The notes beneath the pieces were generated by a model. It ran no database searches, was not told where the DNA came from, and saw only the letters and a program-made list of their open reading frames with translations. Positions 2 through 22,676 of a stretch of 64,000 nucleotides of DNA are shown piece by piece. Within the stretch, counting starts at the first letter, position 1; every line of letters starts with the position of its first letter. The stretch is from assembly GCA_903903985.1 (NCBI GenBank), contig CAIVAT010000006.1:18635-82634 (forward strand). Reading direction: 5' to 3'. This DNA comes from an uncultured Bacteroidales bacterium. GTDB taxonomy: Bacteria > Bacteroidota > Bacteroidia > Bacteroidales > FEN-979. The position numbers were made by a program, and so were the translations under genes.

Positions 2-646
2 GCTGCCTATCCCCTGGTGAATACAACCTATTTTGTTGAAGCATCCGATGGCGTATTCCATGCCTATGATACAGTAAAAGTGACTGTTACCGAGGTTAAT
101 CCTTTGGTTGACATCCTGCCGCTCAACAACGTTACCATACCGGTCGGACAGGGTAACTGCTATAATGCTATACAAACTATCGCAGTTGCTGGCAGTGGGA
201 CAACATTCCTAGTTGAAAGTGGCGGCAGCGCTCAGTTTGTTGCCGGCCAGAATGTGAGATTCCTGCCTGGAACCAAAGGTAACCTGGGATCATACCTGCA
301 TGCTTATACCACCGCAACCGGACCATATTGCTGCAGTGTCGTGGCACCAGTTAAGGATGCCACCGTGGTTGAATCAGCTACGATATTGACAGATGGAAAC
401 AAACCATTTTACAAAGTCTATCCGAACCCGACTACAGGTACTTTCACTTTAGAACTTAACAACGTTGAGGAGTCTTCAATAATTTCCGTGGAGATCTACG
501 GGATCCTCGGTGAAAGAATACTGAATAAGGAAATGTCTGGTTTAAAACAACAGGTGTTTGACCTGTCAGGCAGACAGCATGGTGTTTACCTGATCCGTGT
601 GATCAATGGCGCTGAAATGGGAATAACAAAGATTATCAAGCAATAA
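2..646 (+). CDS. C-terminal part of a secreted protein ending in a T9SS (Por) C-terminal sorting domain; the 5' end lies outside the window
   Basis: The frame is open from the window edge; the track's M at 17 is a GTG inside an open frame. The last ~80 aa (YKVYPNPTTGTFTLEL...GVYLIRV...KIIKQ) fit the Bacteroidota T9SS CTD pattern. Confidence 0.8.
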   Translation, partial: AAYPLVNTTYFVEASDGVFHAYDTVKVTVTEVNPLVDILPLNNVTIPVGQGNCYNAIQTIAVAGSGTTFLVESGGSAQFVAGQNVRFLPGTKGNLGSYLHAYTTATGPYCCSVVAPVKDATVVESATILTDGNKPFYKVYPNPTTGTFTLELNNVEESSIISVEIYGILGERILNKEMSGLKQQVFDLSGRQHGVYLIRVINGAEMGITKIIKQ

Positions 647-6900: not shown

Positions 6901-8439
6901 GCCAACAGCGGCATCACCGCCGGCAAGCCGCTGAAAACCATTCAGCATGCCAATGCAATTATGCGGGCCGACAGCAGCCATCATTACAGGATTCATCTTG
7001 CCGATGGCCGGTATAGTCCTTATACCAACAATGAACCTTTCCCGCTTAAGATCATTAATTACATCGACCTCCAGGGCACCGACGCCAATAACGTCATCCT
7101 CGATGCCGAAGGAAAAGCAAGGGTTGTTGTGTTTAATAACAATTCAACCTCGCACCTTTCTGGCATTACCATCACAGGGGGATCGGTTACCAATGAAAAT
7201 GGTGGTGGTATATTGTTTACCAATTCAAGTCCCACCCTCGAAAATATGACTATTACCGGTAATATTGCTGCGTCAGGTGGCGGAATTTTGTGCAATGTGA
7301 GTTCCAGTCCGAAATTTCAAAATGTCATCATTTCCGGTAATAATGCTTCTTTATCAGGCGGAGGAATTGAATGTCATTCCACCTCCAGCCCGACCTTTGA
7401 AAATGTTAGCATTACAGATAATTCAGCTCCACGTGGAGGCGGAATCGGTTGTTATGATGTTGCTGCACCTGTTTTTAAAAACGTGAACATAACGGGAAAT
7501 TCAGCCTTTGATGGTGGTGGTATCATCATTTCGGGTTCCGGAGATATTAGTTTCTGGCCCCTGGTTAAAATTGAAAACGGAACAATCTCTGGAAATTTTG
7601 CAACGAGGGGTGGCGGATTGTATTGCGAAAATTCAAAACTGACAGGCATCGATCTGGCAATCACCGACAACGAAGCTACGTGGGGTGGAGGCTTTTTCCT
7701 GAACAGTTCGAGGCCCACACTCAGAAACATGACCCTTGCCGGAAATAAGGCCGACAGTGCCGGAGGGGGCATTTATAGCCGCAGCGATAATAAATTTACA
7801 ATGTCAAAAATAGTGAACAGCGTTCTCTGGAATAATCTTCCCCAGGAAGTCTATTTCAGTCAAAGTTATAATATGAATGCAATGATAATTTCTTATTCCG
7901 ACCTCAAAGGAGGACAAGGAAGTATTATTACCTCAGGGATGGATACGGTCGTATGGCAGGAAGGAAACATCCCAGCTGATCCATTATTTGTCGGCGGTGG
8001 TGCCTATCCCTATTCATTCATGGCGGGCTCGCCTTGCCGCGATGCAGGCATGCCTGATACGACCGGGCTCCGACTTCCATTGACCGACCTTGCTGGCGGC
8101 CCCAGGATATGGAATGAGCGGGTCGATATGGGCGGGTATGAGTGGAATAACGTGGGTATTGGGGATTTACGTACTACGAATTACGATTTGCGAATTACCA
8201 GTTATCCAAATCCTTTTTCTGACCAAACAACATTCTCCTATGAGGTGCCTGAATCCTCAAGGGTAACCCTTCAGGTATTCAATAGCATCGGGCTTTTGGT
8301 AGCTGATCTGGTGAATACCACTCAACCCAAGGGAACATATAAAATTGAATGGAATGCTGGCGGACTGCAGGCAGGAGTATACTTTTACCGGGTTCAGGCC
8401 GGGAAACTGGCAGGGGGAGGGAAATTGGTGAAACTATAG
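3910..8439 (+). CDS. Giant secreted right-handed beta-helix repeat protein with a T9SS C-terminal sorting domain
   Basis: Signal peptide. Dozens of N/S-x-A-x-x-GGGI beta-helix turns. Three ~340-370 aa modules start at nt 4561, 5575 and 6682 (FDSIN[LR]CNI[FY]FN...DADL[FY]VS..G.N.NSG...ADS.H.H.IH). The tail YPNPFSDQTTFSY...GVYFYRV is a T9SS CTD. Confidence 0.9.
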   Translation: MKTITFLSAILLIADVLFAQIIHIPADYATIQQGINAANSGDTVLVSPGTYQENINFNGKMITVASLFLTSQDPYYILHTLIDGQQQGIVVTFGNAEDSTSILSGFTITNGGNVNYLMMGGGIHCYTASPKLTNLIITGNSVNFQGPYNNWGGGISCTSYSSPILLNVKITGNHSNYGGGLKCDYYSNPVLSNVSISDNSASASGGGIYCDETSRPVFDSINLCNIFFNSASDGNDIYSNAFLDVIVDTFSVLNPTEYYASPFANFSFDIRHGNLLPVNADLFVSPSGNNSNSGLTASDPLKTIHHAIAIMSADSLHPHTIHMLEGKYSPTTNNEIFPILLPAFMSLAGVSDTSVILDAENSSRVLKVVNNTSSHISGMTITRGSISGENGGGVFCSNSNPVFEHVIITGNSAQRTFTGWWGVEFWYGGFGGGIYFENSSPKLQHVQITHNTASYGGGIAYSGSIPTLEDIEIADNFAQIAYGWWYGSDGGFGGGMYFTNSSPKLHRIKVTQNTANSGGGISYSGSNPNLGEVTVTYNKAASRGGGILFGGSGGVFDSINRCNIYFNIAPEGRDLYSDSYVKVVADTFTVQHPTAYYAEPFNNFSFNVLHGKIPQVDADLFVSAYGDNANSGLSDTVPLRNISYAFPFLRADSLHHHTIHMLVGWYNYWSTSETYPIMIPDYIDLAGINTRNVLVYGNDTSEIFLFRNNTSSHLSGMTIGGGKNSGVVCLHSSPILENLYISYNSGNKGGGVNCDQSSPTLRNVTITNNSAIDFDWSLGNGGGIYCGANSNPVLENSTISYNQASSGGGIYCGINSSPILKNTVLSHNSAVASGGGACIDNFSGALFDSVKVFGNSAFYGGGVGCLPNAMPTLKNVFITSNTAEYGGGMSCTNSNSGLLTNDFISGNTASRQGGGIFFDGQFSVFDSINRCNIYFNEAPEGRDLYSATKIKVVADTFSVLHPTAYYAEPIDNFTFNILHGKIAQADADLYVSPAGNNANSGITAGKPLKTIQHANAIMRADSSHHYRIHLADGRYSPYTNNEPFPLKIINYIDLQGTDANNVILDAEGKARVVVFNNNSTSHLSGITITGGSVTNENGGGILFTNSSPTLENMTITGNIAASGGGILCNVSSSPKFQNVIISGNNASLSGGGIECHSTSSPTFENVSITDNSAPRGGGIGCYDVAAPVFKNVNITGNSAFDGGGIIISGSGDISFWPLVKIENGTISGNFATRGGGLYCENSKLTGIDLAITDNEATWGGGFFLNSSRPTLRNMTLAGNKADSAGGGIYSRSDNKFTMSKIVNSVLWNNLPQEVYFSQSYNMNAMIISYSDLKGGQGSIITSGMDTVVWQEGNIPADPLFVGGGAYPYSFMAGSPCRDAGMPDTTGLRLPLTDLAGGPRIWNERVDMGGYEWNNVGIGDLRTTNYDLRITSYPNPFSDQTTFSYEVPESSRVTLQVFNSIGLLVADLVNTTQPKGTYKIEWNAGGLQAGVYFYRVQAGKLAGGGKLVKL

Positions 8440-8979: not shown

Positions 8980-10326
8980 CTATTGTTGGTCTGCGGGTTT
9001 TAAATCATATTTTTTGATTTTATGATAAAGTGTCACCCGGTCGACTTTTAATGCCTTTGCTGTACGGGAAATATTCCAATTATATTTATGGAGGACCTGG
9101 AGTATAAAGGCTCTTTCGAAATCATCAAGGCTTTCAGTGGAGTTGGTCACAATCGTTTTTTCAAGGGGGAGGTCTTTCAACCCGATTTTCTTGCCATCTC
9201 CAACAACGATAGCCCGTTCAACCATGTTCTCAAGCTCACGGATATTCCCGGGAAAACTGAAATCCTGCAATCGTTTTAAAGCCGTTTGATCTATTGGGAT
9301 CGGAGGTTTGTTCATGGAGGTGCAATACTTTTTAATGAAATAATCGACAAGCAGGGGGATGTCAGTTTTACGTTCTCTCAATGGTGGAATATGAATGTTT
9401 ACTACGTTGAGCCTGTAAAAAAGATCTTCTCTGAAGGTTCCATTTTCCACCATCATTTTCAAATCCTTGTTTGTTGCACAGATTACCCTGAAGTCGGAGG
9501 TGATTTCCTTGTTTCCGCCAACCCGGATAAACGTTTTCGACTCAAGCACCCTCAGCAGTTCAACTTGCATTTTTGTAGAAATGGTGGCGATTTCATCCAG
9601 GAAGATCGACCCGCTGTCGGCCATTTCAAACCGCCCTTTGCGATTGTACATGGCTCCGGTGAAAGCTCCTTTTTCATGGCCGAATAACTCGCTTTCGAGC
9701 AGGCTTTCGGTCAATGCCCCGCAATGGACACTTACAAAGGGAAAAAATTTCCTGGGTGAATTGGCATGAATGGCCCTGGCGACGAGTTCTTTTCCGGTGC
9801 CACTCTCGCCGGTAATGATCACGGAGGAATTGGTTTGTGCGACACTCTCAATTTCCCCAAGCACAATTCTCATGGCTTCACTGTTCCCGATCAGGTCTTC
9901 CACATTCTCCAGTGCGACCACCTTGTTTTTTAAGGTTTCATTTTCTTCAGATAAAGAAATTTGTTTGGTAGCGTTCCGGATCAAATGTGTTAAATCATCC
10001 GGATCAAAGGGTTTTGTGACATAATCAAAGGCACCGTCCTTCAGCGCCTTAACAGCAGTATCAACCGTTGCAAATGCGGTCATGACAATGACAATGGAAT
10101 CTTTTTTCAACGCCTTTATCCTGCGGAGCATCTCAAGTCCATCCATTCCTGGCATTTTAATATCAGCAAGAATGATATCAAACTGGTCGGATTCAAGCAT
10201 GGTCAATGCTTTCTTTGCATTTTCGGCGCATTCAACACGATATCCGTCTTCAATAAACCAGTTGAAAAGCGAATCTCTTACAGATTCTTCATCGTCCACA
10301 ATCAGTATGGAAATTTTTTTCGCCAT
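8980..10326 (-). CDS. Sigma-54-dependent response regulator (NtrC family: receiver + AAA+ + Fis-type HTH)
   Basis: Receiver motifs LIVDDE...DIKMPGMDG; Walker A GESGTGKE; sigma-54 contact loop ESELFGHEKGAFTGA; C-terminal HTH NISRTAKALKVDRVTLYHKIKKY. Confidence 0.92.
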   Translation of the reverse strand: MAKKISILIVDDEESVRDSLFNWFIEDGYRVECAENAKKALTMLESDQFDIILADIKMPGMDGLEMLRRIKALKKDSIVIVMTAFATVDTAVKALKDGAFDYVTKPFDPDDLTHLIRNATKQISLSEENETLKNKVVALENVEDLIGNSEAMRIVLGEIESVAQTNSSVIITGESGTGKELVARAIHANSPRKFFPFVSVHCGALTESLLESELFGHEKGAFTGAMYNRKGRFEMADSGSIFLDEIATISTKMQVELLRVLESKTFIRVGGNKEITSDFRVICATNKDLKMMVENGTFREDLFYRLNVVNIHIPPLRERKTDIPLLVDYFIKKYCTSMNKPPIPIDQTALKRLQDFSFPGNIRELENMVERAIVVGDGKKIGLKDLPLEKTIVTNSTESLDDFERAFILQVLHKYNWNISRTAKALKVDRVTLYHKIKKYDLKPADQQ

Positions 10327-10338
10327 CAGGTTTTCTCC

Positions 10339-12006
10339 TTAATTTTTTATCAAAGGTAACGTAACTGAAATGGTCGTACCATGCCCAAGTTCAGATTTGA
10401 CGAGTATTTTCCCTTTGTGGTTCTGAACAATTCCATGAACAATGGCCAGCCCTAATCCGATGCCGCTGGCATCCTGTTTTGTCGAAAAGAATGGTTCAAA
10501 AATGTGCGGAATATCTTCCGCGGCAATACCCAGTCCGTTATCAATAATTTCAAAGTTAACTGTTTCATCATCATTATTTTTGGTCTTGATCTGGATCTCC
10601 CCGTTTTCAAGTACCGCTTCGGAGGCATTTACGATCATTGCCACACATGCCTGCTTGATCTGGTTCGGGCTGCAGTATATCAGATCGGACCTGGCAGAAA
10701 GATCTGCAATGAAACTGATATTGGCAATTTTTATCGGATGGATCATCAAATCATAGGTATCCTGGAGTATGTCATGCAGATGCCTGGGCTCAAAATCATC
10801 CTGATCTTTTCTTGAAAAATCCAGCAGGCTTTTAACGATGTCTCCGCACCGTTTTGTTTCATTTTCTATCAGCTTTAAATGTTTGAGCATCGAATCCTTT
10901 TTAGCATCGTTCAATTCGGGGTTGCTCAATTGCTTATAGAGTAGTTTTGTGTAAATCAGGATTCCCGACAAGGGGTTATTGATCTCGTGGGCAACGGAAG
11001 AGGATAACTTTCCAAGCGAGGCCAGCCTCTCCACATGCATCAGTTCATTTTGCGCTGCACCCAATTCCTCCGACTTTTTCTGAACTTTGTATTCAAGTTG
11101 CTGCGACCAGTTTTCCAGCTCGTTCGTTGCTGCTTCAAGGTTATCAAGCATTTCATTGAATGCTTTGGAAACCATCCTCATATCGTCCAGCTGATTGGGC
11201 TTAATTTCAACCCGGGTGCTTTTATCTCCGTTGGCAACAGCAATGCTCGCTTTGATCAATGCGTTTAAGGGGTCTTTGATGCGCCTTCTCGTAAATAAAA
11301 TTAAAAATGAAAAAAGAAACAATGTAATGAAAATGGCAAGTAAATAAAATTCGATGGACGACTTTTTTACAGCCCTATCGAGCTCTTCCAGGGGAATTTT
11401 AATGATCAGTGAACCAAGCACTACATCAGTTGCCTTATGTGCATGACATGAACTGGCATAGCACGACTTTTCATTCAGGATAGGCGATCGGATCAACAGG
11501 TGCCGGCTCCGGTTATCATTTTGAATCATCTTGCAATCACTGTTTACATCGATGATTTTATAGGAAGTGTTTTTGCCGGGAAACATTGACCTGATGTTGG
11601 CATGGCAGCTGATACAATTGGGGTTGCTGTGGCTGCGGCTTGTATCAGAGGCAATGGATGAATAAACCAGGTAATCTTCATTATCATACATGTTCACTTC
11701 GTCGATTCCCGGCAGGGTGTTGATAATATCAAGCGTGAACTGGAGTGAACTTTTATTGTTCTCCAGCATGGAATGATACAACGCGCCCTCAACGATGGAG
11801 CCGATGTTGCTGCCACTCTGCCGGATGACCGTATTCAGGTACTGCTCATTGACCGATCTGAAGATGATGCTGAAGGATACAAAAAGGAAAACAGATAAAA
11901 TAGTGATCGCCAATACAACACGGCCATAAATCGAAGATCGGAATTTAACATACTTTTTATAAATTCCATTCCCATTGCTGTTCGGTTGTTTTTTCCTTAA
12001 AAACAT
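10339..12006 (-). CDS. Sensor histidine kinase (2 TM, periplasmic domain with CxxCH and Cx4CH motifs, HAMP, HisKA, HATPase_c)
   Basis: TM helices at about aa 28-50 and 219-238. CISCH at aa 131-135 and CYASSCH at aa 182-188 lie between them. H-box SSVAHEINNPL. C-terminal G-boxes DNGLGI and GIGLGLAIV. Confidence 0.9.
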   Translation of the reverse strand: MFLRKKQPNSNGNGIYKKYVKFRSSIYGRVVLAITILSVFLFVSFSIIFRSVNEQYLNTVIRQSGSNIGSIVEGALYHSMLENNKSSLQFTLDIINTLPGIDEVNMYDNEDYLVYSSIASDTSRSHSNPNCISCHANIRSMFPGKNTSYKIIDVNSDCKMIQNDNRSRHLLIRSPILNEKSCYASSCHAHKATDVVLGSLIIKIPLEELDRAVKKSSIEFYLLAIFITLFLFSFLILFTRRRIKDPLNALIKASIAVANGDKSTRVEIKPNQLDDMRMVSKAFNEMLDNLEAATNELENWSQQLEYKVQKKSEELGAAQNELMHVERLASLGKLSSSVAHEINNPLSGILIYTKLLYKQLSNPELNDAKKDSMLKHLKLIENETKRCGDIVKSLLDFSRKDQDDFEPRHLHDILQDTYDLMIHPIKIANISFIADLSARSDLIYCSPNQIKQACVAMIVNASEAVLENGEIQIKTKNNDDETVNFEIIDNGLGIAAEDIPHIFEPFFSTKQDASGIGLGLAIVHGIVQNHKGKILVKSELGHGTTISVTLPLIKN

Positions 12007-12074: not shown

Positions 12075-12099
12075 AAAAAAACTGGTGGAAATACACCAG
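12075..12099 (-). terminator. Candidate intrinsic terminator closing the NrfCD/GcvH-like unit
   Basis: Minus strand reads ctggtg-tatttc-caccag followed by TTTTTTT. It lies between the stop at 12277 and the kinase start at 12006. Confidence 0.5.
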
Positions 12100-12276
12100 T
12101 TTTAAATTTATATTTTCAGGTCGGATGTCCGATATATATGGTAAGGTGAATTGCAATATTTGTCCCTGGTGCACTTAGAGCTTGTTTCGCTAACATTGTG
12201 GTTCAATGATTTAACTTATTGCCACCAATGGACGCAAAATTTTTTATAAATGGCACAAAGACTTTTCAACCTTCTG

Positions 12277-13005
12277 TCACACGGGCAAACGATAGAGGTT
12301 TAAAAATTCTTTCTGGAAATCCTTCCATATTTCCTCGGGCAAGGATGCCAGTGTGTGATCGGATAATTCGCCTCCATCCTGCAAAACAACCATGGATGTT
12401 TCCGGTGAGCAGGATTTCATGGTCGTTGCCAGGAAATCCTTGAATCGGAGTAGTTCATTGGCAGACCAGTTTGTTGCATCATCGGCAAAATAACATGATT
12501 TTATCTCCGCGATCCAGTTGGTGGGTTTAATCTTATAAATCCATCCTTTGCCATATGGATCTTCATTCAGCACTTCAGTGCGTTCACTCAGCAGGGAGTT
12601 CGTACTCAGGATTTTCCCTGAAACTGGTGAGAAAATGCTGAGCAATTTGCCGTTCTGATCTATTTCAGTCAGCAATTCCCCTTTGCTGATCATCTCACCG
12701 GGCTTTTTAAGGCTGGTGAATTTCACCTCTCCGGTAATATGCAGTAAAAGATCATCAAGCCCGATTGCAGCGGCTCCTGACTTTTCCATATACATCCACG
12801 TGTGGTTGTTGCTGTAAAACAATCCCTGCGGAATTTTCAGCATGCTGGCTGAAAGGATACCCAGTGCTTTTTGAATCCGGGTGCCAATTTTTACCTGTTT
12901 GTTCAATGCGATCGAAAAAGGGACCAGCAAGGCCAGGAAAGCGATGATAATGAGATATTCCAACCCCTTGGTTGCGAAAATATCGTAATAACTGAATCCG
13001 TCCAT
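12277..13005 (-). CDS. N-terminally membrane-anchored GcvH-fold (glycine-cleavage H-like) protein with a conserved C-terminal extension
   Basis: One TM helix (LEYLIIIAFLALLVPFSIAL) followed by a K/R-rich stretch. HTWMYMEK..AAIGLDD...PVSGKI...EDPYGKGWIYKIKP aligns by eye with the E. coli GcvH pattern HEW...VGIT...PVSGEI...PYAGGWIFKIK. Confidence 0.8.
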   Translation of the reverse strand: MDGFSYYDIFATKGLEYLIIIAFLALLVPFSIALNKQVKIGTRIQKALGILSASMLKIPQGLFYSNNHTWMYMEKSGAAAIGLDDLLLHITGEVKFTSLKKPGEMISKGELLTEIDQNGKLLSIFSPVSGKILSTNSLLSERTEVLNEDPYGKGWIYKIKPTNWIAEIKSCYFADDATNWSANELLRFKDFLATTMKSCSPETSMVVLQDGGELSDHTLASLPEEIWKDFQKEFLNLYRLPV

Positions 13006-13013
13006 AATTTTAT

Positions 13014-14240
13014 TTATTTGTTTTCATTAACCCATGATGGTGAATCACGCAATACTGGCATGCGTTGAATGACCCACCTGAAAATCCATATTTCTGTAAA
13101 TATCACGGCCAGGGTAACGGTAAATTCCATCCATGACGGAACATATCGAATGGCCATATCCCACCTGAACCCGATAACCGTGACATTTAACCTGTTTAAA
13201 ATGACGCCTGCCATGGTGATGATGGCTGCAATTTTAATTAGTTTAATATTATTGGTCCTGTAACTGATGAAGAACAGGATCATTGGAAAAAGGACAAACC
13301 CGAGCATTTCAAGCAGGAACCAATACCCCATCGGGGTGTTGAGAAGATCCCAGTTTTGCCCGTGAATAAAGACAAGCAATTGAAGGAAAAAATAAGCAAA
13401 CATGGCACCTGCACAGATCTTGGATAACCCGCGTATGATGTCTTTCTGTGCCTGATGATTTTTTTCACTGATCTGCGCGAAAAAAACCTTGTGGCTGATG
13501 GATCCTTCAAAAATGACCATGGATAACCCGGCGAAAATACTGGATACCAAAAACATGATTGGAATAAATTCCGAATACCACAGCGGATGTATCTTATCTT
13601 TGGCCATGAGGTAAAGCGCACCCAATCCCGATTGATGAAGGGTCGACAGGGTGATTCCAAAAATAACAGCAGCAATGGTCATCCCTGAAAGGATTTTTCG
13701 GGCTCGTCTTGCCCCAAGCCATTCTGCCACAGCTGGTGAAAATTCAATCAATTCGGCAATCATGTATAAAAGAAAATGCCACGCCACCAGGAAAAGAACA
13801 GAACTGGTACCAAAACCGTTCCCGATAATAGGGTTGATCACATGCCATGGCCGCCCCAGATCGAGAAGGAGCGCCCCGGCATAGAACACATAGGCGAGAA
13901 AACCATTCAAAACGGTAACTCTGACGATTGAATGGTACTTGCGCATATTCAGAATATAAACCATGAACGTAAGTACATAGGCCCCGCCGGCAAAAGCTAC
14001 TCCGGTGACCACATCGAAACCAATCCATAATCCCCACGGGATCTCCTGCGTCAGGTTTGTAATAGAGCCGATTCCCTTCCAGAAACGGATGATAATTAAC
14101 ACCAATCCCAAAAGCATGACCGGAATCGAAATAATGTTAAAAGGCGTCAGCCACTTTCCTTTGGGCCTGAATTCGCTTACCAGGAATTTCCACATGGAAT
14201 TCCCATCGCGGTCACCGATGATCTGAGGACTGTTACTCAT
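13014..14240 (-). CDS. NrfD/PsrC/HybB-family polytopic membrane (quinone-interacting) subunit
   Basis: About 10 hydrophobic helices and the position directly after an NrfC-like Fe-S gene. I prefer the start ATG at 14240 (MSNSPQ), which overlaps the upstream stop by 8 nt, to the ORF-track extension to 14315. Confidence 0.8.
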   Translation of the reverse strand: MSNSPQIIGDRDGNSMWKFLVSEFRPKGKWLTPFNIISIPVMLLGLVLIIIRFWKGIGSITNLTQEIPWGLWIGFDVVTGVAFAGGAYVLTFMVYILNMRKYHSIVRVTVLNGFLAYVFYAGALLLDLGRPWHVINPIIGNGFGTSSVLFLVAWHFLLYMIAELIEFSPAVAEWLGARRARKILSGMTIAAVIFGITLSTLHQSGLGALYLMAKDKIHPLWYSEFIPIMFLVSSIFAGLSMVIFEGSISHKVFFAQISEKNHQAQKDIIRGLSKICAGAMFAYFFLQLLVFIHGQNWDLLNTPMGYWFLLEMLGFVLFPMILFFISYRTNNIKLIKIAAIITMAGVILNRLNVTVIGFRWDMAIRYVPSWMEFTVTLAVIFTEIWIFRWVIQRMPVLRDSPSWVNENK

Positions 14241-15099
14241 CTTCTTTCTCTTCGTTAAGGTGACTGTCTTTTGTGGATTGATGGATTCCCAGTAACAATG
14301 CCGGTACAAGCACAAATACGGAAGGAACGGTGTAGAGAAATCCTTTTGTCAGTGCGGGGTAAGAAGACTGCTGAAGGTTTGTATTCATCCCCAATTCTTC
14401 AAAAGGAACCGGCGAAAGGTACAACCATCCCGTACCACCCGCGGCATGTTCTCCATAGATTTGATCGACATACAACCCTGGCTTTTCTGAAATTCTGCGA
14501 TGTCCTTCTTTGATCAGGTCCCTGCGCTTTCCATATAGCAGTGCTTCATTGGGGCAATTGAAGGCACAGGCAGGGCTTTCTCCGGTTTTCAGCCTTTCAA
14601 AGCACATGTCGCATTTTTGAATTTTCGGGTTTGCACTGTGAAATTCAAATTTCGGCATGTCCCAGGGGCAGGAAACCATGCAGTAACGGCATCCCATGCA
14701 TTTATTGCCATCCCAGGTAACCGGTCCCATTTTTGTTTTATGCATGGCTTGCGTTAAACATGCAGCGACACAGGCCGGTTCATTGCAATGCATGCATTGC
14801 CGTTTTATAAAAACTTCCCCTTTAGATGTTTTATACTTGTTAACAACGGTGTTACAGGTTTCATCTGTTTTACGCACGGCTGCGATCTTATTTGAGGGCA
14901 GAGGTTCCGGTAAATGATGCGCCTCCTCGCAGTCATATTCACATCCACGGCAACCCTTGCAACGGGTTGAATCGTAAAGGATGCCGTAGAATTCCACATC
15001 ATTTTTGCCTTTGGAAGCGGCAATCGTATCTTTCCCAATGGCCAGTGTCATCCCAGTGACGCCCAACACTTTTAAAAAGCCTCTTCGGTTAAGTCCCAT
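14233..15099 (-). CDS. Tat-exported 4x[4Fe-4S] ferredoxin-type subunit (NrfC/HybA/DmsB family) with a C-terminal TM anchor
   Basis: Twin-arginine signal NRRGFLKVLG. Four Cys groups: CKGCRGCEYDC, CMHCNEPACVAAC, CMGCRYCMVSCP and CDMC...CAFNCP. C-terminal helix LYTVPSVFVLVPALLLGI, as in HybA. Confidence 0.88.
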   Translation of the reverse strand: MGLNRRGFLKVLGVTGMTLAIGKDTIAASKGKNDVEFYGILYDSTRCKGCRGCEYDCEEAHHLPEPLPSNKIAAVRKTDETCNTVVNKYKTSKGEVFIKRQCMHCNEPACVAACLTQAMHKTKMGPVTWDGNKCMGCRYCMVSCPWDMPKFEFHSANPKIQKCDMCFERLKTGESPACAFNCPNEALLYGKRRDLIKEGHRRISEKPGLYVDQIYGEHAAGGTGWLYLSPVPFEELGMNTNLQQSSYPALTKGFLYTVPSVFVLVPALLLGIHQSTKDSHLNEEKEDE

Positions 15100-15203: not shown

Positions 15204-16901
15204 TTATCTTGCGTTGTCAATAAATTTTGTCTGAAAATCTTCCCAAACCTCAGGTCCCAGATCTGCAAGCAAGTTGTCTTTCAATACACCACCATCCTGG
15301 AGCACAACAGTGGCAAATTCAGGAGTGGTGATCTTTGCCATAAAGGATGCCAGGAAATCTTTTAGCCTTGAAAATTCTCCTTTTAACCAGGTTGTATATT
15401 TTTCAGACATATTAAGAAATTGGATTTCACGCATCCAGTTTGCAGGCTCGATCGTGTATACCCAGCCATCCGTATAAGGTGCGGAGTTAAGGAATGTGGA
15501 ATTGGTAACCACCGCTTTATTATGCGTGGTAATCGTACCGGATACAGGAGCGTAAACCTTCAATTGCTTTCCTTTCTGAACCAGGGTGAGCAACCAATCT
15601 CCTTTTTTTATCTTGTCTCCGGCATTTTTCAATTCGATTCGTGTGATGGGGCCTGTTACATGCTGAAGGAAATCATCGATGCCAATTTTCACCAGGCCAT
15701 CCTTTTCCATGAAAGCCCAGGTATGGGTTTTATCAAAATATAAGCCCTTCGGGATTTTCACGGAATTTTCATCAAACGCAGCAGTAAAATGGGTAGGAAT
15801 AGGAGCGGCAGCCCCTTTATTCTTTCTGGTTTGCCTGTAAGCCTGCATCATGATAACACCAATTACCCCTAATGCGATTAAAACTAAAAGCAATATCCTG
15901 GTATTGGCGTAAGATTTATTTTCCGTGGGGGTTAAATAAATTGCAGAACCATTGATTTTAGCAAGTTGTGTTTCTCGTTCATTGTTAACAAGATCACAAT
16001 ATCCATTCATGCTCAAATACTGTTGTCCATCAGCGAGTACCCAATTCAGGAATGACACTGCCGTTGCATTTATCGGTTTTGCGGGAGAGATAGAATAAAT
16101 ATTGCCAGAGAGGGCTTTGGGATATTTTCCAATCCAGACTCCCCGGGAGAAATCCTTGAGGTTGTCATAAATATTTTCCATATAATCAATCTTCCTGTTG
16201 CCATTTTTATCAATCGGTAGAAGTTGAATATTTTCGCCAAAACATTGTTTATGAACATCAACAATATCAACCAGTTTGCAAAAGCCAATTGCATCCGGAT
16301 CATTTTGCACAGCTGAGATCATTTCTTTACTGGTCGTTAATTTTATTCCTGGAAATTTACCCTGGCTGGTTTTCAGAAAATGTTCCACAGCAGACCCAAC
16401 AGATGCCTCATCCGTGTAATATAAATGCAATGGACGATCATGGCCGGCTCCAAGGACCATTTCCCAATTTTGTTTATCCGGATTGTTAAATATTCTTGAT
16501 AAATCTTCTGTTGCAACCCCCTTCCGGTTGATTTCATCCAGAAAAGGATTTTTTGAATTTATTATGGGTACGGTCACGTCGCGGCCTACAATTATTGTCC
16601 AGAGGGATTGATTGTCAATTGCTGTAATTGATTCACCCGTGACAAATCCAACTTCAGCATTGTTGGCCGACATATCGGACATATTGATAACCGGAGATTT
16701 AATCACATTGATTTTCAAGCCCGGGTTCAATTTAGAATATTCACTGGCTAACCTTTGGGTCAGATTATATAAATCCGGTGAGGACAGCACATTCATTGAA
16801 CCATTCTGGGAGAGACGGCTATCAGTTAATGTTTTATTACTGATTGCAATACTGCAATTTAGCAGTAAAAATCCGATAATTAAAAAGATCCAGGTTTTCA
16901 T
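15204..16901 (-). CDS. Fusion protein: periplasmic PstS/PBP-like-2 substrate-binding domain, one TM helix, then a cytoplasmic GcvH-fold domain
   Basis: Signal/lipobox-like N-terminus. PBP-like blocks (IFNNPDKQNWEMVLG...PLHLYYTDEASVGSAVEHFL...AIGFCKL). TM helix ILLLVLIALGVIGVIMM followed by RQTRKNK. Then HTWAFMEK..VKIGIDD...APVSGTI...PYTDGWVYTIEP. Confidence 0.8.
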   Translation of the reverse strand: MKTWIFLIIGFLLLNCSIAISNKTLTDSRLSQNGSMNVLSSPDLYNLTQRLASEYSKLNPGLKINVIKSPVINMSDMSANNAEVGFVTGESITAIDNQSLWTIIVGRDVTVPIINSKNPFLDEINRKGVATEDLSRIFNNPDKQNWEMVLGAGHDRPLHLYYTDEASVGSAVEHFLKTSQGKFPGIKLTTSKEMISAVQNDPDAIGFCKLVDIVDVHKQCFGENIQLLPIDKNGNRKIDYMENIYDNLKDFSRGVWIGKYPKALSGNIYSISPAKPINATAVSFLNWVLADGQQYLSMNGYCDLVNNERETQLAKINGSAIYLTPTENKSYANTRILLLVLIALGVIGVIMMQAYRQTRKNKGAAAPIPTHFTAAFDENSVKIPKGLYFDKTHTWAFMEKDGLVKIGIDDFLQHVTGPITRIELKNAGDKIKKGDWLLTLVQKGKQLKVYAPVSGTITTHNKAVVTNSTFLNSAPYTDGWVYTIEPANWMREIQFLNMSEKYTTWLKGEFSRLKDFLASFMAKITTPEFATVVLQDGGVLKDNLLADLGPEVWEDFQTKFIDNAR

Positions 16902-16936: not shown

Positions 16937-16952
16937 TTCAATTATAGTGCCA
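16937..16952 (-). promoter_or_regulatory. Candidate sigma-54 (-24/-12) promoter for the PBP-GcvH/NrfCD unit
   Basis: Minus strand reads TGGCAC-TATAA-TTGAA about 36 nt upstream of the ATG at 16901. The -24 box is perfect, but the -12 box is TTGA rather than TTGC. Confidence 0.4.
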
Positions 16953-17008: not shown

Positions 17009-17058
17009 AAAAAATAAGCAAATGAAAGTGCTGATATTTTCAACACTTCCATTTGCTT
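17009..17058 (-). terminator. Intrinsic terminator after the choice-of-anchor-L gene
   Basis: Imperfect ~14-bp stem (aagcaaatgaaagtg / cacttccatttgctt) followed on the minus strand by a TTTTTT tract. Confidence 0.55.
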
Positions 17059-17155: not shown

Positions 17156-19534
17156 CTATTGAATAACCAGTTTTGCTGAACCGGTGAAATTCTCACTTTG
17201 GACACGTAAAATATACATCCCGGGAGGAATGCCTGAAATATCGAAAACATGCTCCATCATTGGATTTGTATCTCTTTTGATTGTGGCACCTAATAATTTT
17301 GTACCGAACATGTTAATGAGTTCTGCATATACATGGTCACTGACATTCCGGATAAACACCCTGAAAGTTCCATGTGCCGGATTTGGATAAACTGAAAAGT
17401 TGGCGTTCCTGGTGTGTTCCTCCAGTCCAACACAATTATCGAAGACAAATGCAATATGGATCGTTGCTGTATTGCTGCACCCATCTTTGTTGGTCACCAT
17501 GACGGAATAGGTTTGCACATCGTAACCGATTCCGGCTGTTGAAACTGTAAGATAGCGGCTTGTTGATCCGGTCGACCATGAGTAGGCGATCCCCTGGTTT
17601 CCTGCATCAAGGCGAATTGTGTCATAAATGCAAACAGAAGAATCGGCCGGACCGAGATAAACATAAGGCAAAGGATAAACCACCACGCTGGTATACCCGG
17701 TAAGCTGGTTGAAGCCATCGGAGACTACAACATGGTAAGTGGTTGTTTCATTTGGGGTAACCAGTGGATTAGCCTCCTGTGATGTAAAATCACCCGGAGC
17801 AGAACTCCAATGATAGGAATAGTTGCCGGAACCACCCCCGGATAAAACAAAAAGTTGCGCCGTATCACCGAGGCATATTGCATTGGGAGTTGAAACGGGG
17901 TTGATCGAGAGTGGTCCTCCCTCTACCGTTATGATCACCTGCGAAGGAAAACTTTCACAACCACTTGCAAGGTCTTTAACCCGGAGAATATAAATTAATG
18001 TCTGGCCCATGTTGCCCGTGGACGGGTCAGGTACCGATGAGTTAAATCCGGAAGGATTTGAAGTCCAGGAGTAGCTGTAGTTTCCATACCCTCCACTTGC
18101 GGTTCCATGCAACGTAGTGCTGGTACCATTGGCAATGGTAACATTGCTGCCGGCATCGGCCAATGGAACCGGATGGACCAAAGCGATGGTCGTATCGTAT
18201 ACCGAATGAGCACACACATCAGTTACTTTCACCGTATATATATTGGTCCCCACGGGCGGAGTAATGACAACAGTGCTGTCATTTCCCGGGATATTCCAGT
18301 AGTAATTCAATGGCATAATCCCTCCGCTGGTATTTGCCTTTAGTTCAACAGTACCGCCATAACACAGGGTTGTATCCGGATTTGGGACAAGAGACATAGG
18401 GGTATAATCATCAATGTAGACCGTATCCCTTTTGATTATTCCATCGCAGGATATCTGATTCAATGTGATGATGACCATCTTTTGGCCTTCAGGAATGTTG
18501 TCAGGAATAGGGTGGATGACAACATTGACACTATCCTGTCCTGGACGAAAAGTCACGAAATCGCCGATTGTTGAATAATCAATGCCATTCACGGCAGTGC
18601 CACCGATTGTATAATGAATGGTGTAAGGGTAATCAAGTAATGCCATCAGCCTGAAATTAATGGCAACATCATTGCATCCTTCAACTGCTTTGCTGCCAAG
18701 TTGAAGGATTGAATTGCTGTTGATCATATTTACACCCGGGCTGCTGAAACTGTTTTGTTCAAGAAAAACCCCGGAGTCCAACTTTTTATCAACCGCATCA
18801 CCGATGGCCAGTTTGATATGGTATGTTGAACAGGGTTGAACCACATGCCAGGCACTGAAAACATAGGTCAGTCCATCGTACTGGTAATATTGACCACCCG
18901 GGTTCGCCCACCTGGATGCAGTGTTCGCACAAATATTGTTGATGGTCACAAACGTGTTCATGGAACCGGGCATGAGAGCGATATTGACACTGTTGTTGGA
19001 ATAAGGTCCGCTGATCCCGGGTCCGCTGAGGAAAAATCCGAATGCGTCGTTAAATTCGTTACAATATTCGAAAAACTCCTCAGAACCAAAAACATAACGG
19101 AACCGGACTGTGTCAAATTGCGGAATGAAATCAAATTCTATCACAGCTTTGTCAAGCGTGTTTGACCCTGACAGGGAATTCAGGTCCGGGTCACCTGGTC
19201 CTCCAACCTGAGCACCTGCACCACTTTCATCATTTGGTCCAATGGCAATGCTTGCACTTCCCGTTGTCATAAGGATTCCGCCTGTCAGGCCTAACTGTGA
19301 GGCGGCAACACCTGCAGTGGCGAAGGATCCAACCTGGTTGGATGAAATGACACCCGATGTACCGTTAAATGTAACGTTACTGATGGTAATGCCTTCGCCA
19401 ACCAGGTAATTCTGAACCAATTGCTCGGGAGTCATGTTCATAGCGGAACCCTGTACCACCGTCAGTTGCGCATGTACAAGGCTGGTGAGCATCAGGCATG
19501 TTCCAATGATAAATATGTTAAAATATTTTGCCAT
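17156..19534 (-). CDS. Secreted choice-of-anchor-L domain protein with a Calx-beta-like domain, Ig-like repeats and a T9SS CTD
   Basis: GDPDLNSL...IEFDFIPQFDTVRFRYVFGSEEFFEYCNEFNDAFGFFLSGPG (choice-of-anchor L). YTIGGTAVNGIDYS...VIHPIPDNIPEG (Calx-beta-like). Tail VYPNPAHGTFRV...GMYILRV. Confidence 0.85.
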   Translation of the reverse strand: MAKYFNIFIIGTCLMLTSLVHAQLTVVQGSAMNMTPEQLVQNYLVGEGITISNVTFNGTSGVISSNQVGSFATAGVAASQLGLTGGILMTTGSASIAIGPNDESGAGAQVGGPGDPDLNSLSGSNTLDKAVIEFDFIPQFDTVRFRYVFGSEEFFEYCNEFNDAFGFFLSGPGISGPYSNNSVNIALMPGSMNTFVTINNICANTASRWANPGGQYYQYDGLTYVFSAWHVVQPCSTYHIKLAIGDAVDKKLDSGVFLEQNSFSSPGVNMINSNSILQLGSKAVEGCNDVAINFRLMALLDYPYTIHYTIGGTAVNGIDYSTIGDFVTFRPGQDSVNVVIHPIPDNIPEGQKMVIITLNQISCDGIIKRDTVYIDDYTPMSLVPNPDTTLCYGGTVELKANTSGGIMPLNYYWNIPGNDSTVVITPPVGTNIYTVKVTDVCAHSVYDTTIALVHPVPLADAGSNVTIANGTSTTLHGTASGGYGNYSYSWTSNPSGFNSSVPDPSTGNMGQTLIYILRVKDLASGCESFPSQVIITVEGGPLSINPVSTPNAICLGDTAQLFVLSGGGSGNYSYHWSSAPGDFTSQEANPLVTPNETTTYHVVVSDGFNQLTGYTSVVVYPLPYVYLGPADSSVCIYDTIRLDAGNQGIAYSWSTGSTSRYLTVSTAGIGYDVQTYSVMVTNKDGCSNTATIHIAFVFDNCVGLEEHTRNANFSVYPNPAHGTFRVFIRNVSDHVYAELINMFGTKLLGATIKRDTNPMMEHVFDISGIPPGMYILRVQSENFTGSAKLVIQ

Positions 19535-19538
19535 TTTG

Positions 19539-22500
19539 CTACTTCGCTATTTCGCTATATCCTTCTTTCATTACCTCGCTGCTCAATAATGCTTCATAAA
19601 GCACCTCAATGGGATGAAGCGCCTTTCTCCCGGTACCATCCATGATCTGGTGACGACAGGAAGTTCCGGGTGCGGCGATGATTACATCCCTTGCGGCCTT
19701 TCTGATTTCAGGGAATAACACGAGTTCTCCGACCTGCATCGACACATCATAATGTTCTTTCTCATAGCCAAATGACCCGGCCATTCCGCAACAACCCGAC
19801 TTAATTTCCTCCACCCTGTAGTTCACAGGAATTGACAGCATCCTTTTCATCGGCTCCACCGATGCCAGGGCTTTCTGATGGCAATGCCCGTGTAGTTTGA
19901 TGATCCTTTCCCGATCCGTAAAAAGTCCGGATAAGGGGTGAATATGCTCCTGCTCCTTTATGGGGGAGGACCGAGTTGGGTGTTGCAAAATAAACTCATC
20001 AAACATAAGTGCGTTCTTTGCAAGTTTTAAAGCGGCTTCTTTCAAAGGGGCATCGACCAGGTCGGGATATTCATCACGAAAAGTAAGAATCGCGGATGGT
20101 TCAATCCCAATTAACGGGGTCTCCGGTGTGATCAGGTCTTTTAACTTCTGAACATTATCATTGGCCAGCTTTTTAGCTTTTCTGATGAGTCCTTTCGAAA
20201 GAAAAGTACGGCCACTTTCACAATGATCCGGAATGAGGACGCGGTAACCGAAAGCATTGAGCAATATGATCGCCTTTATGCCAACCTCCACATCGTTGAA
20301 ATTTGAGAATTCATCAGCAAACAAATAAACGATCGGTCCTGAAGTTCCTGCGCCGGCAGCTTGTGGTGAAATTCTGCCATCGTAAAGATTTTTTACGGCC
20401 CATACACGGAGTGTAGTATTGTATAGCAATGGAACATGCCTTTCCGGTGCAAACCGAAGGAGTTTTTTTGTGATCCCTGAAAGGAATTTATTTGTCTGGA
20501 AGATATTGAAGAGGGCAGGAGATATGGTTCCCAATTTGTTGATCAGGCTGATGTTAGCGATAAGCCATGACCTGAGCGGAATTCCATTGGAGTCATACCA
20601 GTGCTGAAGGAATTCTGCTTTTAATTTGGCGATATCCACGTTCGAAGGGCATTCTGATTTGCAGGCCTTGCAGGAGAGGCAAAGATCCATCACTTCATAA
20701 ATCTCCTTATGATCAAAGGGATTCGTTTTGGATGAATTGGTGAGGAACTCCCTGAGAATGTTCGCTCTTGCACGGGTAGAAGTATTTTCATCTTTTACAG
20801 CCATATACGACGGACACATATATCGGCCGGTGATCACGGTGTTACGGCAGTCGCCTGAGCCGTTGCACTGTTCTGCCGCACGCAGGATCCCATGGCTTCC
20901 CGAAAAATCAAATGTTGTCGGGATGTCACGCGATGGTTTTCCAGGCACAAACCGCAGGCTGGTATTCATTTTAGGAGTATCAACAATTTTATTGGGATTA
21001 AAAATGTTTCCCGGATCCCAAACCTCCTTTATACTCTTGAACAGGTCGTAATTCTTCTGTCCGAGCATGAATGGGATAAATTCACCTCGCAGCCTGCCAT
21101 CGCCGTGTTCTCCTGAGAGCGATCCATTGAATTTTTTCACCAGTTTTGCTGTCTCCTGGGCTACGGTATGAAAGAGTTCAACATCTGCAGGATCTTTGAG
21201 ATTCAGTACAGGCCGGAGATGCAGCTCCCCTGAACCGACATGGGCGTAATAAACGCAGTCAAGTCCCAACCGGGCAAGCATAGTATTGAATTCTCCGATA
21301 TACTCAGGAAGTACTTCCGGGTTTACAGCGGTGTCTTCTGTTACCGGAACAGGCTTACGGTCGCCGGGATAGTTGGAAAGCACTCCCAGTCCTGCCTTAC
21401 GCAGATCCCAAACTTTTTTAACATCCGGCGGAAAGATGATCGGGAAGTGATATCCAAGGCCGGCAGCGCGCATCTCTGCTTCAAGCCGGTGAAAAATGTC
21501 CATGATCTCCTCCCTTGAATCGCGGGCAAACTCAACAATCAGGATTGCCCCGGGATCGCCATCAATGAAAAAACGGTTCTGCCGCTGCGTAATGTTATCT
21601 TTGGTGCAGTCCATGATGGCTTTATCCATCAATTCCACCGACCCCGGTTGATATTTTAATGCTACAAGATTGGCTTTCAATGATTCAGCAATAGTGTGGC
21701 AATGAATACACACCAGGGCTTTCTCCACCGGAGGCAATGGAACAAGGTTCAGTTTTATTTCGGTGATAAACATGAGCGTACCTTCACTGCCGGCAATAAG
21801 TTTGCTGAAGTTGAACCGAGACGGGTGACGGGTGACGGGTGACGGGAATCCTGATATATGTGATTCGTGAAGGGTGGTGGCTGATTCATAATTTGGTTCC
21901 AGGTGATTTTCACTTGTCACCCGGATCGCATCACCTTCAAATGGTTCTGTTTCCAGCAGCAGGTCAAGCGCATAACCGGTATTTCTCCTGTGAATAGAAG
22001 GATCAGGGTATTCTTTGCGGATGTTTTCCTGTGTCGCGGGGTCTGAAAGAATTTCATGTATTTGCCGGTAGATTTTATTTTCAAGAGCATTCCCCTGGCA
22101 TTTGTTCCTGAACTCATCTGTGGAAAGTTCCTTAAATTCCACGTCGGAGCCATCACTCAGGAACCCTTTTACAGAAATCACGTGATCACGGGTACTGCCA
22201 TAAAGGATTGAGTGGGCTCCGCAGGAATTGTTTCCAACCATGCCCCCCATCATGCAACGGCTTGAGGTACTTGTTTCGGGGCCAAAGAAAAGGCTGTATT
22301 TTTCAACTGCTTTGTTGAGTTCATCCAGGATCACCCCGGGTTGTACACGGACCCATTTTTCGGCGGGATTGATTTCCAGGATGTTGGTCATATAACGCGA
22401 TATGTCCACTACCAGTCCCTGCCCGACCACCTGACCGGCAAGGGAGGTGCCTGCTGCACGTGGAATCAGGGGGATTTTTATTTCATTTGAGAACCGGATC

Positions 22501-22676
22501 AGTTTCTGAATGTCCGATGAATTCCTGGGACGGGCCACCCCTGCCGGGACTTCGCGATAGGCAGATGCATCGGTGGCATAAAGCAGCAGTTGAATTTCAT
22601 CAGTATAAATCTCCCCCTCGAGGTCAGGCAGTAATTTTGCTATTTTTTCAATAAACTCTTTATGCTGCATCATCAT
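19539..22676 (-). CDS. YdiJ-like fusion: FAD-linked (PCMH-type) oxidase + 4Fe-4S + cysteine-rich GlcF/GlpC-like domain; probable D-2-hydroxyacid dehydrogenase
   Basis: 1045 aa. FAD-binding N-terminal half (IPRAAGTSLAGQVVG, GSEGTLMFITE). CLSCKACKSECP Fe-S motif. C-terminal CCG-type motifs (HGHCHQKA, SGCCGMAG). Confidence 0.85.
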   Translation of the reverse strand: MMMQHKEFIEKIAKLLPDLEGEIYTDEIQLLLYATDASAYREVPAGVARPRNSSDIQKLIRFSNEIKIPLIPRAAGTSLAGQVVGQGLVVDISRYMTNILEINPAEKWVRVQPGVILDELNKAVEKYSLFFGPETSTSSRCMMGGMVGNNSCGAHSILYGSTRDHVISVKGFLSDGSDVEFKELSTDEFRNKCQGNALENKIYRQIHEILSDPATQENIRKEYPDPSIHRRNTGYALDLLLETEPFEGDAIRVTSENHLEPNYESATTLHESHISGFPSPVTRHPSRFNFSKLIAGSEGTLMFITEIKLNLVPLPPVEKALVCIHCHTIAESLKANLVALKYQPGSVELMDKAIMDCTKDNITQRQNRFFIDGDPGAILIVEFARDSREEIMDIFHRLEAEMRAAGLGYHFPIIFPPDVKKVWDLRKAGLGVLSNYPGDRKPVPVTEDTAVNPEVLPEYIGEFNTMLARLGLDCVYYAHVGSGELHLRPVLNLKDPADVELFHTVAQETAKLVKKFNGSLSGEHGDGRLRGEFIPFMLGQKNYDLFKSIKEVWDPGNIFNPNKIVDTPKMNTSLRFVPGKPSRDIPTTFDFSGSHGILRAAEQCNGSGDCRNTVITGRYMCPSYMAVKDENTSTRARANILREFLTNSSKTNPFDHKEIYEVMDLCLSCKACKSECPSNVDIAKLKAEFLQHWYDSNGIPLRSWLIANISLINKLGTISPALFNIFQTNKFLSGITKKLLRFAPERHVPLLYNTTLRVWAVKNLYDGRISPQAAGAGTSGPIVYLFADEFSNFNDVEVGIKAIILLNAFGYRVLIPDHCESGRTFLSKGLIRKAKKLANDNVQKLKDLITPETPLIGIEPSAILTFRDEYPDLVDAPLKEAALKLAKNALMFDEFILQHPTRSSPIKEQEHIHPLSGLFTDRERIIKLHGHCHQKALASVEPMKRMLSIPVNYRVEEIKSGCCGMAGSFGYEKEHYDVSMQVGELVLFPEIRKAARDVIIAAPGTSCRHQIMDGTGRKALHPIEVLYEALLSSEVMKEGYSEIAK
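21818..21924. repeat. Family C 'GGGTGAC' word element lying in frame inside the YdiJ-like CDS
   Basis: gagacGGGTGACGGGTGACGGGTGACGGgaatcc ... cacttGTCACCCGgatc has inverted ends. It encodes about 36-39 aa (GDAIRVTSENHLEPNYESATTLHESHISGFPSPVTRHPS) just before the conserved FN..KL.AGSEGTL block. Confidence 0.6.

Follow-up and report, generated by a model that had tools for sequence, protein, structure and literature searches.

A 565-amino-acid (aa) fusion protein, encoded on the reverse strand at 15204..16901 of a 64,000-nucleotide (nt) window of DNA from an uncultured Bacteroidales bacterium (FEN-979; assembly GCA_903903985.1, contig CAIVAT010000006.1), was found to consist of a signal peptide, a PstS-fold domain of the periplasmic binding protein (PBP) type, a single transmembrane (TM) helix, a GcvH-fold domain and a C-terminal extension. 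This architecture is confirmed by the open reading frame list, Pfam, a family search, an AlphaFold2 model and Foldseek, and the protein is real, conserved and uncharacterised. In it, two textbook folds, those of the phosphate-binding protein and of the lipoyl-carrier H-protein, have lost their defining residues and are joined across the membrane, and hundreds of Bacteroidota from sediments and lakes, both anaerobic and facultative, have kept the combination. As to its role, the reading put forward here, with rather less than even confidence, is that the fusion acts as a bitopic accessory or adaptor, a third component of the adjacent two-component system formed by a histidine kinase and a sigma-54-dependent regulator.

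The four-part organisation had already been read from the letters by a first-pass annotation of the stretch, and Pfam, the model and Foldseek agree with it, the C-terminal extension being real as well. All of the parts lie on the reverse strand. A Sec-type signal peptide occupies approximately aa 1-21 (16839..16901), with an N-terminal MK followed by a hydrophobic core; a lipoprotein reading of this region, based on an LLNC16 motif, was rejected, since Cys16 is not conserved across the family. The periplasmic PstS-fold domain, a type II PBP recognised by Pfam, the model and Foldseek, extends over aa 34-317 (15951..16802), and the TM helix, identified by hydropathy and in the model, over aa 336-354 (15840..15896), after which comes the basic stretch RQTRKNK. 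The cytoplasmic GcvH-fold domain covers aa 381-507 (15381..15761; Pfam, Foldseek and profile alignment), and the helical, family-specific extension, seen in the family alignment and the model, covers aa 508-565 (15207..15380). In the AlphaFold2 model (mean pLDDT 82.7), built on an alignment of 35 diverse family members, aa 34-317 form an alpha/beta domain of two lobes and aa 329-360 a long helix. A disordered linker (360-372) leads on to a domain rich in beta strands (388-495), behind which are three more helices (499-523, 527-532 and 550-564).

By hydropathy, aa 336-354 is the sole strongly hydrophobic segment besides the N-terminal signal, and basic residues are unevenly distributed around it. 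Across 82 family members, the 15 flanking residues hold on average 1.2 Lys+Arg before the helix and 4.2 after it, with the greater count after the helix in 95% of members. From this bias, together with hydropathy, the positive-inside rule and the model, the PBP domain is predicted to lie outside, in the periplasm, and the GcvH-like domain inside, in the cytoplasm, as had been proposed; an arrangement with both domains on the same side was not seen.

Database searches returned the same architecture in abundance. A word-indexed protein search gave more than 2000 relatives, the best 120 of which are all approximately 565 aa long and 52-61% identical to the fusion. In an exhaustive search of one representative per 50%-identity cluster, 359 clusters matched at E<=1e-30, the top 150 of them being full-length without exception (approximately 560 aa, 34-52% identity), and the architecture is conserved over the whole range of 34-61% identity. 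A search of one genome per species located 293 stretches encoding a relative. Given these relatives, the fusion is no artefact of gene calling, assembly or chance. For comparison of the loci, 80 of the 293 were fetched (81 including L001), and all 80 are from Bacteroidota, namely Prolixibacteraceae, Draconibacterium, Mariniphaga, Lentimicrobiaceae and metagenome-assembled genomes (MAGs) of Bacteroidales. Conservation is much stronger in the cytoplasmic half than in the periplasmic one: on average, the GcvH domain and the extension of family members are 56% and 53% identical to those of the window protein, and the PBP domain 35%.

The assignment of the N-terminal domain to the PBP fold was borne out. 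Pfam PBP_like_2 (PF12849) matches aa 38-290 with 29.9 bits, slightly over the gathering cut-off of 27, and Foldseek against the PDB returned PstS structures with E values of 1e-16 to 1e-13 and TM-scores of 0.6-0.74, including 4jwo (E 1.5e-16) and both 4exl and 1twy (target-normalised TM-score 0.71-0.74). The PstS family model TIGR02136 gives 31.4 bits against a cut-off of 206.6. For the phosphate loops, a profile of the PBP domain alone was aligned to the PstS structures 4pqj, 4omb and 1twy. Loop 1 (GSTS in 1twy, with the family pattern GS[ST]T after strand 1) is replaced by S-P-D/E in the fusion family, and at loops 2 (GxGSxG; GvGSTaG) and 3 (R..SGT) the profile alignment contains no conserved Ser, Thr, Gly or Arg. 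The domain is PstS-like in fold, but with all three canonical loops replaced or not conserved, the phosphate- or oxyanion-type pocket claimed for it at first is not supported by the sequence. The motifs quoted for the domain (SVGSAVEHFL and AIGFCKL) belong to the generic PBP_like_2 scaffold.

The residues that are invariant in this domain are mostly of the same generic kind (N118-P119, W146, aiGF, G258-K-Y-P261 and G292-Q293), and no redox cofactor motif is present in it. A distinct feature is an invariant EF-hand-like loop at 16176..16211 (reverse strand), recognised by its motif conservation, in which D231-x-N233-x-N235-G-x-I-D239-x-x-E242 fits the canonical EF-hand/dockerin Ca2+ loop at every position and may thus be regarded as a putative Ca2+ site. 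No described PstS-family member is known to carry an EF-hand- or dockerin-like DxNxNGxIDxxE insertion. In comparison with PstS (PF12849, TIGR02136), the fusion retains the fold of a type II PBP along with the scaffold motifs NP, W, aiGF, G-YP and GQ, whereas it differs by the lost phosphate ligands, the EF-hand-like insertion, the TM helix with its cytoplasmic domain, and the lack of a transporter partner.

In the cytoplasmic half, too, a fold is kept and its defining residue is lost. Pfam GCV_H (PF01597) matches aa 387-507 with an E value of 3e-23, and Foldseek pairs the domain with the E. coli and Thermus H-proteins (3ab9, 3a8k and 1onl) at TM-scores of 0.93-0.95 and an rmsd of 1.2-1.5 Å across approximately 126 residues. 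The GcvH-fold assignment of the first-pass annotation therefore stands, and the canonical lipoyl lysine is lacking. In phmmer and family-profile alignments, which are gapless there, the lipoyl lysine of 1onl and 3a8i aligns with Gly444, and Lys445 follows at position +1. Both residues, located at the hairpin (15567..15572, reverse strand), are invariant in the fusion family, in which the motif [IV]-Q-x-G-K replaces the E-S-V-K of H-proteins. The NCBIfam GcvH scores are below their cut-offs (NF002270, 83.4 against 117; TIGR00527, 66.2 against 115.85).

The extension of approximately 60-70 aa behind this domain is strongly conserved, notably LQDGG at 534-538 and GPEVWEDFQ at 549-557; taken as the last 58 residues, it has no sequence match in the PDB and none of significance in Pfam. 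The fusion shares with H-protein and LbpA-type proteins the fold and most scaffold motifs (HxW, GIxDxxQ, PxSG and PY..GW), and is unlike them in the Gly of the lipoyl column, the membrane tether, the extension of approximately 60 aa and the absence of GcvT, GcvP or Hdr partners. The genes gcvT and gcvP are missing from the cluster and the flanking genes examined, the remaining window not having been scanned, and the cluster holds no lipoate ligase or Hdr-like gene. As the defining residues of the PstS and GcvH functional families were looked for and are not there, the fusion, judged by its sequence, falls outside both of them.

The fusion is the first gene of an operon in which genes for an Fe-S protein, an NrfD-family protein and a 242-aa paralog of its own cytoplasmic half follow, before a terminator-like hairpin with a T-run (12078..12103, reverse strand) closes the four-gene unit; the kinase and the regulator form a separate unit. 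A sigma-54 -24/-12 element, TGGCACTATAATTGA, is located at 16938..16952 on the reverse strand, 37 nt upstream of the fusion ATG, and in 67 of 78 related loci the pattern TGGCAY-N5-TTG[AC] precedes the start codon by approximately 50 or 95 nt. A palindromic upstream activator site, to which no strand is assigned, is found at 17028..17046, which in the window puts it 75-94 nt ahead of the -24 box. In anchored upstream regions its family consensus is GTGTTGA-N5-TCAACAC, approximately 80-110 nt upstream of the sigma-54 box. Promoter and enhancer site together have, to judge by their motifs and spacing, the classical sigma-54 layout, and we infer, as the obvious step, that the adjacent NtrC-type regulator activates the fusion promoter. 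When the palindrome was used to search for a regulon, the only site in the window was the one at this promoter. The activator site is enclosed by an inverted repeat with a 19-bp stem (17016..17058), which could also serve as terminator of the upstream gene, a cargo gene of the type IX secretion system (T9SS).

That regulator, at 8980..10326 on the reverse strand, is a sigma-54-dependent response regulator with REC, AAA+ and HTH_8 domains (Pfam and NCBIfam; Sigma54_activat E 6e-69). It starts 12 nt past a HAMP histidine kinase at 10339..12006 on the same strand (Pfam, NCBIfam and sensor model), which itself follows the terminator-closed operon by 270 nt. The periplasmic sensor of the kinase, aa 46-222 (11341..11871, reverse strand), belongs to no Pfam family, and a homologue search with the sensor alone returned only fragmentary Bacteroidota proteins. 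Its invariant residues are C131-x-x-C-H135, C158 and C182-x4-C-H188-x-H190. The sensor model (pLDDT 72) has a PDC/PAS-like fold, with the extracellular domain of WalK as best match (TM-score 0.71) and a further resemblance, by Foldseek, to the Geobacter c-haem sensors GSU0935 and GSU0582. From the CxxCH-type motifs and these fold matches, the kinase is likely a periplasmic c-type-haem sensor of redox state or of a gas. In one locus (L036, 12695..16126) the kinase is present in two tandem copies.

The constancy of this kinase and regulator beside the fusion speaks for an accessory role. Among the 81 loci, the order fusion, Fe-S protein, NrfD protein, paralog, kinase, regulator is found in most of those with enough flank, and even around a fusion member of only 34% identity. 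Of the 81 loci, 65 have the kinase behind the cluster and 58 the regulator, the remainder being for the most part cut short by a contig end; genes beyond this six-gene set are not conserved. In eight short loci (L019, L023, L024, L045, L046, L054, L059 and L078), which are spread over at least five branches when the fusions are placed in a neighbour-joining tree, the fusion stands directly before the kinase and regulator, with every invariant fusion motif and the sigma-54 box retained. The Fe-S, NrfD and paralog genes are present or absent jointly at every locus; the fusion's only invariable neighbours are the kinase and the regulator. The genes flanking one short locus, L019, are unrelated to the cluster.

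The first-pass annotation had tied the fusion to the adjacent Fe-S/NrfD module, possibly as a protein delivering substrate to it. The adjacency is real, and the strongest linkage proved to be with the kinase, the sigma-54 regulator and the paralog, which had gone unnoticed; a delivery role is weakened, since the module is repeatedly missing from the locus while the fusion persists intact. In one locus from a long-read MAG (L022, 10523..15905), the matches to the NrfD protein, paralog, kinase and regulator are split, most likely through frameshift errors, or else because the locus is decaying.

The membrane segment itself gives a further indication. The TM helix of the fusion is poorly conserved in sequence (column identity 0.31), whereas the periplasmic tail and TM helix of the paralog, M[DE]GFSYxNIFxTKGIEYL..IIAFL..LIPFW, are nearly invariant, a contrast that fits a tethered adaptor in the one case and an integral subunit in the other. 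It is this variable helix, taken with the lasting linkage to kinase and regulator, that favours the reading of the fusion as a tethered accessory protein.

Co-variation was assessed by a crude mirror-tree approach, with partial correlations of distance matrices controlling for the regulator, over 49 complete loci and the window; as the pairs are not independent and the paralogs are under common constraints, all of these correlations are suggestive only. The strongest value in the cluster, 0.64, is that of the Fe-S protein with the kinase sensor, a hint that the redox state of the Fe-S/NrfD module may be what the kinase reads. For the fusion, the strongest link is with the paralog (0.43-0.45), and its PBP domain gives 0.35 with the kinase sensor. 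The fusion's cytoplasmic domain has values of about zero with the Fe-S protein (0.05) and the NrfD protein (-0.19).

If the fusion is such an adaptor, its degenerate PBP domain would offer a periplasmic docking or sensing surface toward either the kinase sensor or the Fe-S protein, or toward both of them. In the cytoplasm, the GcvH-like domain with its extension would then work as a protein-protein module and not as a lipoyl carrier, pairing with itself or with the paralog. In this way the fusion could make the output of the kinase depend on whether the HmcBC-like quinone module is present or on what state it is in, and on periplasmic cues as well; being itself sigma-54-induced, it could act as a feedback element of the sigma-54 regulon. 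Ligand-gated control, one of the functions suggested at first, is still plausible. Were the adaptor reading true, a likely haem-binding kinase would be the means by which Bacteroidota tie sigma-54 transcription to an NrfD-type quinone module.

Binding proteins that act as co-sensors of kinases have been reviewed (PMC8050422), and in AioX/AioS/AioR, TorT/TorS, LuxP/LuxQ and PgtC/PgtB/PgtA, as here, an extracytoplasmic binding-protein fold is encoded beside a histidine kinase. The nearest functional likeness would be with AioX/AioS/AioR and PgtC/PgtB/PgtA, in which, again as here, a sigma-54-dependent regulator drives the sigma-54 promoter of a redox or transport operon (PMC8050422). Unlike these co-sensors, the fusion has a PstS-family domain with degenerate ligand loops, a C-terminal TM tether and a conserved cytoplasmic GcvH-like domain, and its gene lies inside the regulated operon. 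Another parallel is provided by YycH and YycI, which span the membrane once, have an extracytoplasmic domain and modulate the kinase WalK, whose sensor is the best structural match of the kinase sensor of this cluster; YycH and YycI have no sequence or fold relation to the fusion, lack a cytoplasmic domain, and belong to another phylum and regulon.

Several points weigh against the adaptor role. The fusion is co-transcribed with the Fe-S, NrfD and paralog genes, and a terminator separates it from kinase and regulator, as would be expected of a subunit of a complex. The Fe-S, NrfD and paralog genes of the short loci might lie elsewhere in the genome, and the co-variation of the fusion's cytoplasmic domain with that of the kinase is weak (0.21).

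The main rival to this reading, and a close one, would have the fusion serve, in a structural or regulatory capacity, in a membrane complex of four subunits together with the Fe-S protein, the NrfD protein and the paralog. Docked on the periplasmic Fe-S protein, the PBP domain would stand in for a cytochrome or a catalytic subunit, both GcvH-like modules would sit on the cytoplasmic face, and the kinase and regulator would do no more than control expression. The first of these partners, at 14233..15099 on the reverse strand, is a Tat-exported, HmcB/HybA-like Fe-S protein by Pfam and NCBIfam, with an RRGFLK Tat signal, four Cys cluster motifs and a C-terminal TM anchor at aa 254-272; by homology with HybA and HmcB, the four motifs are read as probable sites of four [4Fe-4S] clusters. 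Its equivalog scores are below cut-off (HmcB, 316 against 420; HybA, 223 against 263). The second, a 408-aa NrfD-family membrane protein at 13014..14240 on the reverse strand (PF03916 and NCBIfam; HmcC/HybB-like), has approximately ten hydrophobic segments, and it too scores below cut-off (HmcC, 400 against 550; HybB, 250 against 450).

The paralog, 242 aa at 12277..13005 on the reverse strand (Pfam and alignment to the fusion), has a TM helix with its N-terminus outside, followed by a cytoplasmic GcvH-like domain and extension. It is 44% identical to aa 381-565 of the fusion, and the similarity spans the extension as well as the G-K, LQDGG and W..FQ motifs. A homologue search with it returned close Bacteroidota orthologs only, among the best 120 matches. 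Because its TM helix is conserved and it is co-inherited with the Fe-S and NrfD genes, the paralog looks like an integral subunit of an HmcBC-like module. The likeness to HmcBC, NhcBC and HybAB lies in a Tat-exported Fe-S protein with four motifs and an anchor and in a ten-TM NrfD-type subunit; the differences are the two TM-anchored GcvH-like proteins, the sub-equivalog scores and the lack of a partner, no cytochrome, hydrogenase or molybdoenzyme gene having been found in the window cluster or in related loci.

A single terminator-closed sigma-54 operon, headed by the fusion, is what a complex of four subunits would call for, and so is the tight spacing behind it, with an 8-nt overlap of the Fe-S and NrfD genes and 8 nt between NrfD gene and paralog (the fusion lies 104 nt from the Fe-S gene), in an order that is kept down to the 34%-identity members. 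The fusion would be the only periplasmic partner of the Fe-S protein encoded in the cluster; it also co-varies with the paralog, and a move of the other three genes to another place could account for the short loci. However, at least five independent lineages lack these three genes at the locus and yet keep the fusion intact beside kinase and regulator, the fusion's TM helix is poorly conserved where that of the paralog is not, its cytoplasmic domain shows about zero co-variation with the NrfD and Fe-S proteins, and its PBP domain carries no redox cofactor motif that would fit such a subunit.

Considerably less probable is the explanation that both tethered GcvH-like modules are true swinging-arm carriers, with Lys445 lipoylated or otherwise acylated, which would shuttle reducing equivalents, an acyl group or a sulfur group at the cytoplasmic membrane face in the manner of the LbpA proteins of sHdr systems. 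The near-perfect H-protein fold, the invariant Gly-Lys at the hairpin where the lipoyl lysine usually sits, a conserved extension that could shield an arm and the redox-related gene neighbourhood would all suit such a carrier, and it is because the invariant lysine adjoins the canonical position that this unlikely option has been retained. It was reported by Wallis and Perham that a shift of the lysine by one position abolishes the lipoylation of lipoyl domains. In the fusion the lipoyl column holds Gly with Lys at +1 in alignments free of indels, ESVK has given way to [IV]Q-x-G-K, the NCBIfam GcvH scores stay below cut-off, and the cluster offers no ligase, gcvT or gcvP, or Hdr-like partner gene. 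Moreover, NrfD proteins are not known to have a cofactor by which electrons could reach the cytoplasmic side (PMC8076601). Should the carrier reading be true nevertheless, a new kind of membrane-bound swinging-arm protein would have been found.

The Gly in the lipoyl-lysine column is shared by the paralog and its orthologs, which are named 'glycine cleavage system protein H' in both NCBI and JGI; judged by that column and by their nearly invariant N-terminal tail and TM helix, the name is very probably wrong, and a systematic misannotation is probable. Relatives of the fusion, for their part, are called 'hypothetical' or 'substrate-binding domain-containing', or bear the JGI composite name 'glycine cleavage system H ... 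/ ABC-type phosphate transport ... substrate-binding', so that the public annotation of both proteins is misleading.

A more ambitious view of the locus, for which there is likewise only a slim chance, is that the six genes constitute a previously unrecognised transmembrane redox-sensing device. The HmcBC-like quinone/Fe-S module may report to the c-haem sensor of the kinase, and the two tethered H-protein-derived modules, one of them with a Ca2+-loop pseudo-binding-protein outside, may form its cytoplasmic side. The invariant lysine, given a non-canonical modification, might then link the quinone pool and the periplasm to a cytoplasmic swinging arm or adaptor.

That the fusion is a membrane-tethered phosphate or oxyanion binding protein feeding an ABC transporter is effectively excluded: a PstS fold and a weak match of 31 bits to TIGR02136 are outweighed by the loss or lack of conservation of all three phosphate loops, the first of which holds an acidic residue, by a score far under its cut-off, by the absence of pstCAB, permease or ATPase genes beside the fusion in the window and in all of the 80 loci, in line with the early view that transport is not its role, and by a conserved cytoplasmic domain that would be left without a role.

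In the library searched, no paper was found that describes the fusion architecture, and a review of the NrfD family (PMC8076601) makes no mention of GcvH-like partners. The Geobacter cbcBA/bccR locus was considered as a similar system and dropped; it is a sigma-54 operon, but has no binding protein, GcvH or NrfD genes. For further work the cluster has the merit of being compact and of having cultivable carriers, such as Draconibacterium and Mariniphaga.

The genes upstream of the fusion in the window, which encode a T9SS protein and an FAD/Fe-S oxidase, were considered as functional partners and rejected, since they are syntenic in close relatives only. The second of them, a 1045-aa protein at 19539..22676 on the reverse strand, combines FAD-linked oxidase domains with a 4Fe-4S dicluster and a long C-terminal region, and resembles a D-lactate or glycolate oxidase onto which an Fe-S subunit has been fused. 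C-terminal sorting domains of type IX secretion are carried by three window proteins, at 17..646 and 3910..8439 on the forward strand and at 17156..19534 on the reverse strand, among which are a beta-helix protein of 1509 aa and a 'choice-of-anchor L' protein of 792 aa; the presence of these three is consistent with the Bacteroidota origin of the DNA.

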